A stretch of DNA of 38,471 nt, taken from UHGV virus genome UHGV-0091782. One strand, 5' to 3'. Positions 1,039-1,971 of this stretch are shown here, in pieces (positions within the stretch are counted from its first letter, which is position 1; every line of letters starts with the position of its first letter). The notes beneath the pieces were generated by a model. It did not search any database and had not been told where the DNA came from. It worked only from the letters and a program-made list of their open reading frames with translations. A program made the translations under genes and the position numbers. Source of the DNA: a virus.

Positions 1039-1971
1039 TTAAGTTAGAAGCCGTTCCTCGTAATCGTCGGTTGTGGGCATTTTTCCGATCTCTGTCATGC
1101 GACACACTAATCGGGATAAAAGCACTCGTACCTCAATTATATGCTCAACTAAAAAGTTATCTGACGTAGCTCCCCCATGCACTGCCTTCGAACGGTAGTC
1201 ATACAGCTTCTTAACCCTACGATAGGTGGCTAAACGATCAGGCCCTCGCTCCTCAAGATATGCTGCAGCCATAAGAGCAAGACGAAAACGAAGCTCTGAA
1301 TTGATTCCAAAGAGCGCTTCAAATCCTGCCCATAAAGCAGCAGCAGCCATTCTCAAATTCGCGTGTTGGTTATGAGTTGTTAAAGAATCAATAGCGAGCC
1401 GGAATGCTGGTTGCTCTAGCAAATCTATCCAACGCTTGAGATTCTCTTGAACCCAGTCGAGAGACTCTACTGATATCTCTACACTTGGGCTTATTCTCCG
1501 AACTGCCGGCACGTCCTCAAGAAGTTGGACTTCACACGAGTTGGCTTGAAGAGCAGGGAATACATCCCAAGATGCACTTGCTACTGCAGGAACAAGTATA
1601 TCGGTGAGTGTGCGGCATCGGATCGCGGATATGATCCACCATCCGATAGTCAGGTCTGATTGAGAAAATTTCGACTCACTGCTTTGCAACGCAAGCTCAT
1701 GCGTAACTGCGGGCATATGACGAGCAACAGCGCTGAGTAGCGACTTGCTCTTAAGCGCTTTGGCTAACTCTATCTCTCCTGGTGGATGAAGTACCTCCCT
1801 TAATTCACCTACGTCTTGGAAAACATAAGGCCCGTTTCGAAACGTCAATCCTGACAAAGCGAAACAGATCTCATTCTGACTGGATAAACTAGATATTCGA
1901 GTTGCAGCGTATTTCTTGCGAGACTCGAAGTAGTTAAGTAAACCTGACAATTTTTCTTTGTTGATTTCCAT
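1039..1971 (-). CDS. Hypothetical cargo protein (310 aa) with a C-terminal HEPN-like R-x4-H motif (YDYRSKAVHGG); candidate RNase-type abortive-infection or toxin effector
   Basis: ATG at 1971, TAA at 1039-1041; motif RSKAVH near the C-terminus fits the HEPN Rx4-6H consensus; no resemblance to phage structural or replication families; located in the att-proximal moron region. Confidence 0.45.
   Translation of the reverse strand: MEINKEKLSGLLNYFESRKKYAATRISSLSSQNEICFALSGLTFRNGPYVFQDVGELREVLHPPGEIELAKALKSKSLLSAVARHMPAVTHELALQSSESKFSQSDLTIGWWIISAIRCRTLTDILVPAVASASWDVFPALQANSCEVQLLEDVPAVRRISPSVEISVESLDWVQENLKRWIDLLEQPAFRLAIDSLTTHNQHANLRMAAAALWAGFEALFGINSELRFRLALMAAAYLEERGPDRLATYRRVKKLYDYRSKAVHGGATSDNFLVEHIIEVRVLLSRLVCRMTEIGKMPTTDDYEERLLT

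Follow-up and report, generated by a model that had tools for sequence, protein, structure and literature searches.

A candidate single-protein HEPN effector carried as a hairpin-bordered cassette in Escherichia coli prophages and genomic islands

Introduction

In PrrC/RloC and RnlA/LsoA, a nuclease carries a regulatory module at its N-terminus. Among single-protein HEPN defenses, ApeA and DARNA have non-catalytic sensor domains and cleave tRNA upon ligand activation. ApeA is a single-protein anti-phage tRNA anticodon nuclease of ~583 amino acids (aa) with an HEPN_Apea domain (bioRxiv 10.64898/2026.01.26.701840); DARNA (456 aa) has its HEPN domain at residues 1-159, followed by a Pds5-like helical C-terminal domain, and is switched on by single-stranded DNA to which phage single-stranded DNA-binding protein is bound (bioRxiv 10.64898/2026.02.22.705581). 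Here we describe a gene in the virus genome entry UHGV-0091782, a stretch of 38,471 nucleotides whose whole length we refer to as the window, that codes for a 310-aa protein (WP_042058399.1) with a C-terminal domain that very probably belongs to the HEPN superfamily.

The hallmarks of HEPN domains are a four-helix up-and-down bundle made of two alpha-hairpins, an Rx4-6H motif, a polar residue (N, D, or H in most cases) following the arginine, and, upstream in helix 2, a conserved acidic residue that typically belongs to an Ex3[KR] motif; non-catalytic members typically lack Rx4-6H (Anantharaman et al. 2013; PMC3710099). One described hotspot of antiviral systems is the G/FI region of P2 (Rousset et al. 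2022; PMC9122126), and a 2026 study of P2/P4 hotspots noted that the recombination process behind defense-gene swapping was still to be elucidated.

Results

The window is a stretch of E. coli chromosome, with 100% identity to NZ_CP031215.1. A preliminary description of it, prepared from the nucleotide sequence by itself, placed a 310-aa protein at positions 1039 to 1971, and this open reading frame (ORF) is real, though it reads on the minus strand, the plus-strand frame being closed by stops. It has full-length homologues and is matched over its full length by the PHROGs entry phrog_28161 (E=1.2e-179; function 'unknown'), and the protein is labeled 'HEPN domain-containing protein' in RefSeq (100% identity) and alike in UniRef. 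The ORF and the parts of its product are as follows.

1039..1971 (stop codon included), minus strand: ORF of the HEPN protein, 310 aa (WP_042058399.1), ATG start
1477..1971, minus strand: N-terminal alpha/beta domain, residues 1-165, presumed to be a sensor or regulatory domain; best conserved at G41, P64, E92, R118, W135, E152, and D153
1042..1476, minus strand: C-terminal domain, residues 166-310, all-helical in the AlphaFold2 model and very likely HEPN
1282..1296, minus strand: Ex3R motif E226-L-R-F-R230, the second (acidic) HEPN motif, invariant in a 45-sequence alignment
1174..1194, minus strand: putative catalytic block R260-S-K-A-V-H265-G266 (Rx4H), spanning the C-terminal end of helix 244-264 and the first part of the loop before helix 271-295; invariant in 45/45 sequences

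The AlphaFold2 model, computed with the homologue alignment as input, is a confident single unit (predicted local distance difference test 93.2, predicted template modeling score 0.90). Its N-terminal part consists of helix 2-29, six short strands, and helices 66-88, 104-121, and 135-140, and it is tightly packed on the C-terminal part, which comprises helices 168-185, 188-202, 206-221, 229-239, 244-264, 271-295, and 301-309. Secondary structure assigned to the model with DSSP gives helix 244-264, a loop at 265-270, and helix 271-295, with R260-H265 ending the first of these helices and entering the loop; E226-LRF-R230 stands at the start of helix 229-239. The segment YDYRSKAVHGG (residues 257-267), in which an Rx4-6H signature had been recognized at the outset, does fit that pattern as R260-x4-H265, and the all-helical C-terminal domain of the model surrounds it. 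The distance from R260 to the C-terminus is 50 residues, against the ~60 first given.

Shuffled versions of the protein contain a mean of 1.5 Rx4-6H matches, with at least one in 80% of the shuffles, and the protein itself holds a second such pattern, R84..H91, whose histidine is kept in only 28 of 45 homologues. A bare Rx4-6H pattern is thus within chance expectation, and R260..H265 owes its significance to conservation and structure. In the alignment (45 sequences, down to 41% identity), R260 and H265 are kept in all 45, so that the motif is indeed conserved among homologues. The full list of invariant residues in the C-terminal half is R207, W214, G216, E218, E226, R230, Y257, R260, S261, V264, H265, G266, and H277, and that in the N-terminal half is R18, G41, P64, E68, E92, W111, R118, P128, W135, E152, D153, and P155. 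Conservation extends into a divergent set of 122 representatives (123 for some columns) with 22-44% identity to the query: counting over non-gap positions, the residues of the block are kept in 119/119 (R260), 115/118 (H265), 115 (G266), and 104/118 (S261), and those upstream in 122 (W214), 118 (E218), 112/123 (E226), and 110/123 (R230). T199 and H200 are lost in the divergent set, and they are therefore not core residues.

The C-terminal domain agrees with the published HEPN definition in its four-helix bundle fold, in its Rx4-6H motif and the position of that motif at the end of helix 3, in the polar residue after the arginine, and in the upstream Ex3R. The polar residue is S261; serine is polar, yet it is not the commonest choice in the superfamily. 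Because the position of R260-H265, the invariant S261, and the invariant Ex3R all match superfamily hallmarks, we regard the HEPN assignment as well supported, in keeping with the call made in the preliminary description. By analogy with catalytic members of the superfamily, the domain is likely to be an active ribonuclease (RNase).

A word-indexed search returned 220 homologues from Enterobacteria, Pseudomonas, Burkholderia, Planctomycetota, and Acidobacteriota; nearly all are full length, at 300-320 aa, and none of the 220 carries a precomputed Pfam domain. A profile searched exhaustively against 1.84 billion cluster representatives gave 3,676 relatives at E<=1e-3, of which 182 are at E<=1e-30. 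Searches of the PDB by sequence (phmmer and profile hmmsearch) found no match, Foldseek found no significant match among the BFVD viral structures, and tblastn against plasmids gave a single weak Sphingomonas match. Matches of ~160 aa that might be taken for stand-alone HEPN halves were rejected: the one that was checked, P0205 on the metagenomic contigs L015 and L016, is a full gene with an in-frame stop, and the others resemble gene-call fragments. The full-length homologue on these two contigs (L015 943-1869, L016 689-1615) has its stop at the conserved W112 (DVAW-stop-FISALR), the gene caller having made two ORFs of it, and it is either a pseudogene or a gene with a recoded stop codon. Since the half-length matches are artifacts, the two-domain architecture is fixed.

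The preliminary description held that the N-terminal part resembles nothing recognizable, and at the sequence level this stands (no Pfam, NCBIfam, or PADLOC match), with the correction that the part is ~165 and not ~200 residues long. Its proposal of a new HEPN fusion architecture was overstated, the family being fixed, widespread (3,676 clusters), and catalogued by RefSeq, UniRef, and PHROGs; what is new rests in an N-terminal domain without assignable family and in our having found no characterizing paper. The family is best described as already catalogued yet uncharacterized, and as a variation on the abortive-infection effectors that consist of a single HEPN protein, one whose sensor domain is of unassigned kind.

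ApeA and WP_042058399.1 are alike in being single genes with a C-terminal HEPN domain, a catalytic block of the form Y-x-x-R-[NS]-x-x-V-H-x-G, and an upstream L-W-x-x-x-E-x-L helix; in both, non-catalytic N-terminal parts are packed on the HEPN domain, and both occur in E. coli phage or satellite hotspots. The invariant ApeA blocks NLWIALESL and IYRxRNxIVHSG resemble ALWAGFEALF and LYDYRSKAVHGG in the WP_042058399.1 family, and the UniRef entry of one Enterobacter homologue is named 'Apea-like HEPN domain-containing protein'. In an hhalign comparison with an ApeA profile, which was built from homologues gathered with the partial Ec2ApeA sequence given in the preprint, R260/H265 superpose exactly on the ApeA catalytic residues R502/H507, with only 31-35 columns aligned (E 0.033 and probability 1.5% at full length; E 0.0041 and probability 8% for trimmed domains). 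ApeA differs in having an all-helical N domain, a Mid domain, and a split HEPN domain with insertions, whereas WP_042058399.1 combines an alpha/beta N domain and a compact HEPN domain in 310 aa, and the PADLOC ApeA models do not match it. Membership of the ApeA clade is not demonstrable, given the different architecture (310 versus ~583 aa) and sequence similarity confined to those 31-35 columns.

DARNA likewise joins an HEPN effector and a non-catalytic sensor in a single polypeptide, and its response is abortive tRNA cleavage; however, the domain order is opposite, its non-HEPN domain is helical rather than alpha/beta, and there is neither sequence similarity nor a PADLOC match. Identity with DARNA was rejected on architecture, the HEPN domain being N-terminal there and C-terminal here. 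The best structural matches of the C-terminal domain are the HepT toxins of HepT/MntA (HEPN-MNT) type VII toxin-antitoxin pairs (e.g., PDB 8xdj, 7ae2, 5yep), which are minimal four-helix HEPN proteins with Rx4H at the end of helix 3. Unlike HepT, which is ~130 aa and encoded beside an MNT nucleotidyltransferase antitoxin, WP_042058399.1 has a fused N-terminal domain of ~165 aa, and no MNT or other antitoxin-like gene neighbors it in any context examined. The anticodon or mRNA nucleases PrrC/RloC and RnlA/LsoA (PMC3710099) are alike in logic, each pairing a latent HEPN-type RNase with a sensing or regulatory module and being unleashed by phage infection.

The HEPN gene is present in 27/5,426 complete E. 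coli genomes, with at least 99% identity in each and always on the chromosome. It lies in at least four contexts, which for the genomes other than CT282 are as follows.

Context i, 11 genomes: the window locus, with a truncated P4-type integrase and its thrW-like attachment (att) fragment on one side and a proL-like tRNA remnant on the other
Context ii, 1 genome: a P2-like prophage (locus L003), the HEPN gene standing alone between the tail-fiber-assembly (G) and sheath (FI) genes
Context iii, at least 13 genomes: a lambdoid prophage, with the DUF977/YdaT/Cro-CI region on one side and hokD/rem on the other
Context iv, 1 genome: another island

Pairwise BLAST places the borders of the common region at 836/844 to 2055/2061 in L003, L012, L013, and L014, with at least 99% identity across the four contexts. 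Because only this ~1.2 kb, in which the HEPN ORF is the only full-length gene, is shared between contexts, we regard the gene as an autonomous single-gene cassette with 88 nt of upstream and 195 nt of downstream sequence of its own. In strain APEC20/16 (context i), the cassette adjoins an intact satellite-like element.

836..2063, minus strand: single-gene cassette
2040..2063, plus strand: type-A border hairpin GTCCGCTTTTGGCACATAGCAGCC, upstream of the HEPN ORF, its 3' arm degenerate here
1993..2022: perfect 11-bp inverted repeat GCTATTGTGTA-N8-TACACAATAGC, 22-51 nt upstream of the HEPN ATG; a possible operator or hairpin of the 5' untranslated region
947..978: hairpin with 14-nt arms and no T-run, 61 nt 3' of the HEPN stop codon; a possible transcript 3' end
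841-924, minus strand: 27-aa basic ORF (MKWSTKTGHRKKTRLCQYLFRTSAVRS) in the conserved 3' part of the cassette, with its end inside the B' hairpin; possibly an ORF by chance, possibly a small partner peptide
836..858, plus strand: type-B border hairpin GTCTGTTATGAGCGAACAGCAGA, downstream of the HEPN ORF, degenerate here

The repeat at 1993-2022, which is specific to the E. coli cassette, and the hairpin at 947-978 were rejected as family-wide regulatory elements, neither being conserved near distant homologues.

In every context the cassette ends inside short hairpins, which are of two types that both have arms GTCCGCT/AGCGGAC. Type B, downstream of the cargo, reads GTCCGCT-(T/C/G)TGAGCGA(A/G)(C/G)-AGCGGA, and type A, upstream of the cargo, reads GTCCGCT-NTTGGCACAA-AGCGGAC with the loop TTGGCACAA; perfect type-A copies are found in L012, L013, L014, L018, and L019. 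Comparison of the lambdoid slot of L012 (HEPN) with that of L018 (PDC-S33) shows homology stopping at the B hairpin and resuming at the A hairpin. The P2 slot has the same border pattern with HEPN and with HNH cargo, and empty P2 sites are without hairpins. Across P2-like, lambdoid, and island loci (L003, L012-L014, L018, L019, and L075), cargo is swapped exactly between the hairpins, the alternatives being HEPN, PDC-S33 RelA/SpoT, PDC-S39 DUF4209, HNH, and DUF4160. Units can also stand in series, as in the L013 array, which runs B-gene-A, 19 nt, B-HEPN-A, 19 nt, B-gene. A type-A 35-mer is present, unannotated, in 2,756/5,426 E. coli genomes, with 1-7 copies in each.

The hairpins have no T-run, no Rfam match (window 1-5000), and no literature match for their sequences. 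We considered whether these units are integron cassettes and rejected this reading, the hairpins having no GTTRRRY core of the kind that attC sites carry (RYYYAAC/GTTRRRY) and the loci inspected showing no integron integrase. The hairpins may be dedicated sites or no more than portable microhomology for phage recombinases. Between the A hairpin of the HEPN unit and the next B hairpin, the window has a 400-nt ORF-free spacer (2064-2462) without an Rfam match, where the L013 array has 19 nt; it may be a remnant of lost cargo or an unrecognized RNA.

As to what else fills these slots, it is the 99%-identical copy in L003, not the window's own locus, that is P2 G-FI cargo; elsewhere the P2 slot is empty (L074, L076) or holds an HNH endonuclease (L075). 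The lambdoid slot is never empty in the 5,426 genomes, with no site at which both flanks are adjacent, and in other strains its occupants match PADLOC models of candidate single-gene defenses, being a RelA/SpoT-domain protein (PDC-S33, 5e-119) or a DUF4209 protein (PDC-S39, 8e-103). An FRG protein beside an Enterobacter homologue is PDC-S15 (PADLOC). Scanning one genome from each species yielded 51 loci, distributed over at least 8 phyla, and no conserved partner gene was found in the Pseudomonas, Enterobacter, or planctomycete loci. The 109 ORFs flanking 16 diverse full-length homologues include, as raw counts, two SIR2, two GajA-like ATPases, two MADS components, one DUF4917, one DUF4238, and three phage integrases.

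The remaining features of the window lie on either side of the cassette.

50-388, minus strand: truncated P4-type integrase, Arm-binding domain only
543-588, minus strand: thrW-like tRNA-Thr 3' fragment, 46 nt, with compensatory T-arm changes
2757-3740, minus strand: 327-aa protein with predicted membrane segments and a coiled-coil-like middle; phrog_5157, function 'unknown'
4039-4120, plus strand: RefSeq tRNA-Pro, 82 nt; 3' half proL-like, 5' half diverged and overlapping a degenerate type-A copy
4362-4863: degenerate DinI-like and helix-turn-helix pseudogenes
5039-6064, plus strand: acyltransferase-family gene, moron-like, beside tail fiber genes
6106-38471, minus strand: large prophage, with baseplate J, gp46, V, and tail and head genes

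The thrW-like fragment beside the truncated integrase is an att scar, and since both the HEPN cassette and that of the 327-aa membrane protein lie beyond it, on the integrase's outer side, they are outside the integrase-bearing element. We accordingly rejected a description of the window island as a P4 hotspot: the cassettes adjoin a satellite-like element and are not demonstrably inside it. In the source genome, a vat autotransporter island lies just upstream. The membrane protein has no PADLOC or Pfam match and sits in a hairpin unit of its own beside the HEPN cassette, from a B hairpin at 2463-2485 to a degenerate A at ~4030-4053; none of the P2, lambdoid, and other-island contexts of the HEPN gene contains it, and it is therefore independent cargo. 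Although RefSeq annotates a tRNA at 4039-4120, ARAGORN finds none in the window and Rfam, which gave no credible RNA family anywhere in window 1-5000, none at E<=1. The 20-mer GCTTTTGGCACATAGCAGCC stands without change at both 2044-2063 and 4034-4053, and what RefSeq annotates is probably a hybrid tRNA or a pseudo-tRNA that lies at an att junction.

Discussion

We favor, with moderate confidence, the interpretation that the HEPN protein is a single-protein anti-phage effector of the abortive-infection type, a self-contained cassette of prophages and genomic islands, and anti-phage defense seems a reasonably likely biological role for it. The mechanism that we propose draws on analogy with RNase L, PrrC/RloC, HepT, Csm6, ApeA, and DARNA. 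Two HEPN domains would dimerize to form a composite, metal-independent RNase site, and in uninfected cells the enzyme would be kept inactive by its N-terminal domain, its oligomeric state, or both. A cue derived from the phage, be it a protein, a nucleic acid, or a small molecule, could then be perceived through the N-terminal domain or in an inter-domain pocket, releasing the nuclease to cut host RNA, most likely tRNA anticodon loops and possibly mRNA or rRNA, so that translation would stop and the infection would be aborted. That tRNA is the specific target is at best a tentative suggestion, made by analogy with a class of enzymes whose commonest target is the tRNA anticodon loop. The flanking genes, as raw counts, suggest residence in defense islands or mobile elements. 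The role of abortive-infection or toxin effector that the preliminary description suggested is plausible, and genomic context strengthens it.

Several results weigh against this interpretation. Searches with Pfam, NCBIfam, and PADLOC models (hmmscan of the query, 45 alignment members, and 10 distant relatives) gave no relevant match, no curated HEPN model being matched by sequence (0 Pfam, 0 NCBIfam, and 0 PDB-sequence matches), and the profile-profile link to ApeA is not significant (hhalign probability 1.5-8%). No match was found by tblastn against 50,697 deposited phage genomes. A literature search for the family accessions and phrog_28161 found no paper that mentions either, and for none of the family members did we find an experimental report of toxicity, of RNase activity, or of protection against phages. 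Rousset et al. did not include the family of WP_042058399.1 in the systems that they tested, and its accessions are absent from those supplementary data of that study that were accessible; the 'putative HEPN (P2)' of pFR103 in the same study is a different protein, its sequence differing from that of WP_042058399.1. Finally, our proposal takes its RNA target, its trigger, and its oligomeric state purely from analogy.

Toxin-antitoxin and abortive-infection roles overlap in practice, and the best-surviving alternative, which we nevertheless think unlikely, is that the gene is an addiction or toxin module that stabilizes its host mobile elements, with the HEPN RNase as the toxin. Its neutralizer would have to be either the N-terminal domain acting in cis or an unrecognized product acting in trans, a small antitoxin or an RNA, for which the cassette's 195-nt 3' part would code; examples are the 27-aa ORF at 841-924 (minus strand) and the hairpin at 947-978. 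The contexts examined offer no MNT-like or other antitoxin-like neighbor, and conservation of the 3' non-coding region and of the small ORF does not extend to the surroundings of distant homologues; the N-terminal domain, by contrast, is conserved together with the HEPN domain across phyla. The slots, moreover, alternate with defense candidates and not with classical toxin-antitoxin pairs.

It is quite improbable that the C-terminal domain forms an HEPN-like helical bundle without catalytic activity, serving ligand or nucleotide binding or protein interaction, in which the arginine and histidine are structural or binding residues and there is no RNase. Inert HEPN domains typically lose Rx4-6H (PMC3710099), whereas here the arginine, the polar residue, the histidine, the glycine, and the upstream Ex3R are all kept at 22-44% identity, and the motif is at the canonical structural position and aligned with the ApeA catalytic residues.

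Least probable of all is an RNA-processing or regulatory enzyme for the prophage's own life cycle (acting, e.g., on transcripts of phage or host during induction) without exclusion of other phages: the gene does lie inside operon-like prophage regions (P2-like G-FI, and lambdoid between replication and Q-region genes), oriented as its neighbors, and RNA processing is the function of some members of the superfamily, Las1 and Swt1 among them (PMC3710099), but it is dispensable and rare (27/5,426), similar prophages having empty or otherwise filled slots, it is also found outside prophages in many phyla, and, with an upstream region belonging to it, it moves independently as a cassette.

The arrangement of cassettes between hairpins is a more unusual lead than the HEPN protein itself. 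A broader proposal, which we put forward as rather doubtful, is that these units are an undescribed class of hairpin-delimited cassettes, their hairpins being dedicated recombination sites that would shuttle single-gene defense candidates (the HEPN protein, PDC-S33, PDC-S39, and the HNH nuclease) among prophages of the P2-like and lambdoid types and islands of the chromosome, with integron-like arrays possible; the same proposal includes a new HEPN defense whose N-terminal domain, (weakly) uL10-like, would sense or target RNA or the ribosome.

If the favored interpretation of the HEPN protein as an anti-phage effector is correct, it would represent a compact (310 aa) and very widespread family of single-protein HEPN immunity or toxin proteins, with ~3,700 clusters at 50% identity in many phyla. 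The sensor domain is without known relatives, and therefore the trigger and the RNA target would, if confirmed, be new biology, and the protein would be a candidate for a small programmable-activation RNase scaffold. The hairpin sites, if they act as proposed, would give a mechanism for the rapid swapping of defense genes, and hairpin-bounded cargo exchange between unrelated prophage types is a testable handle on the movement of defense genes between mobile elements.

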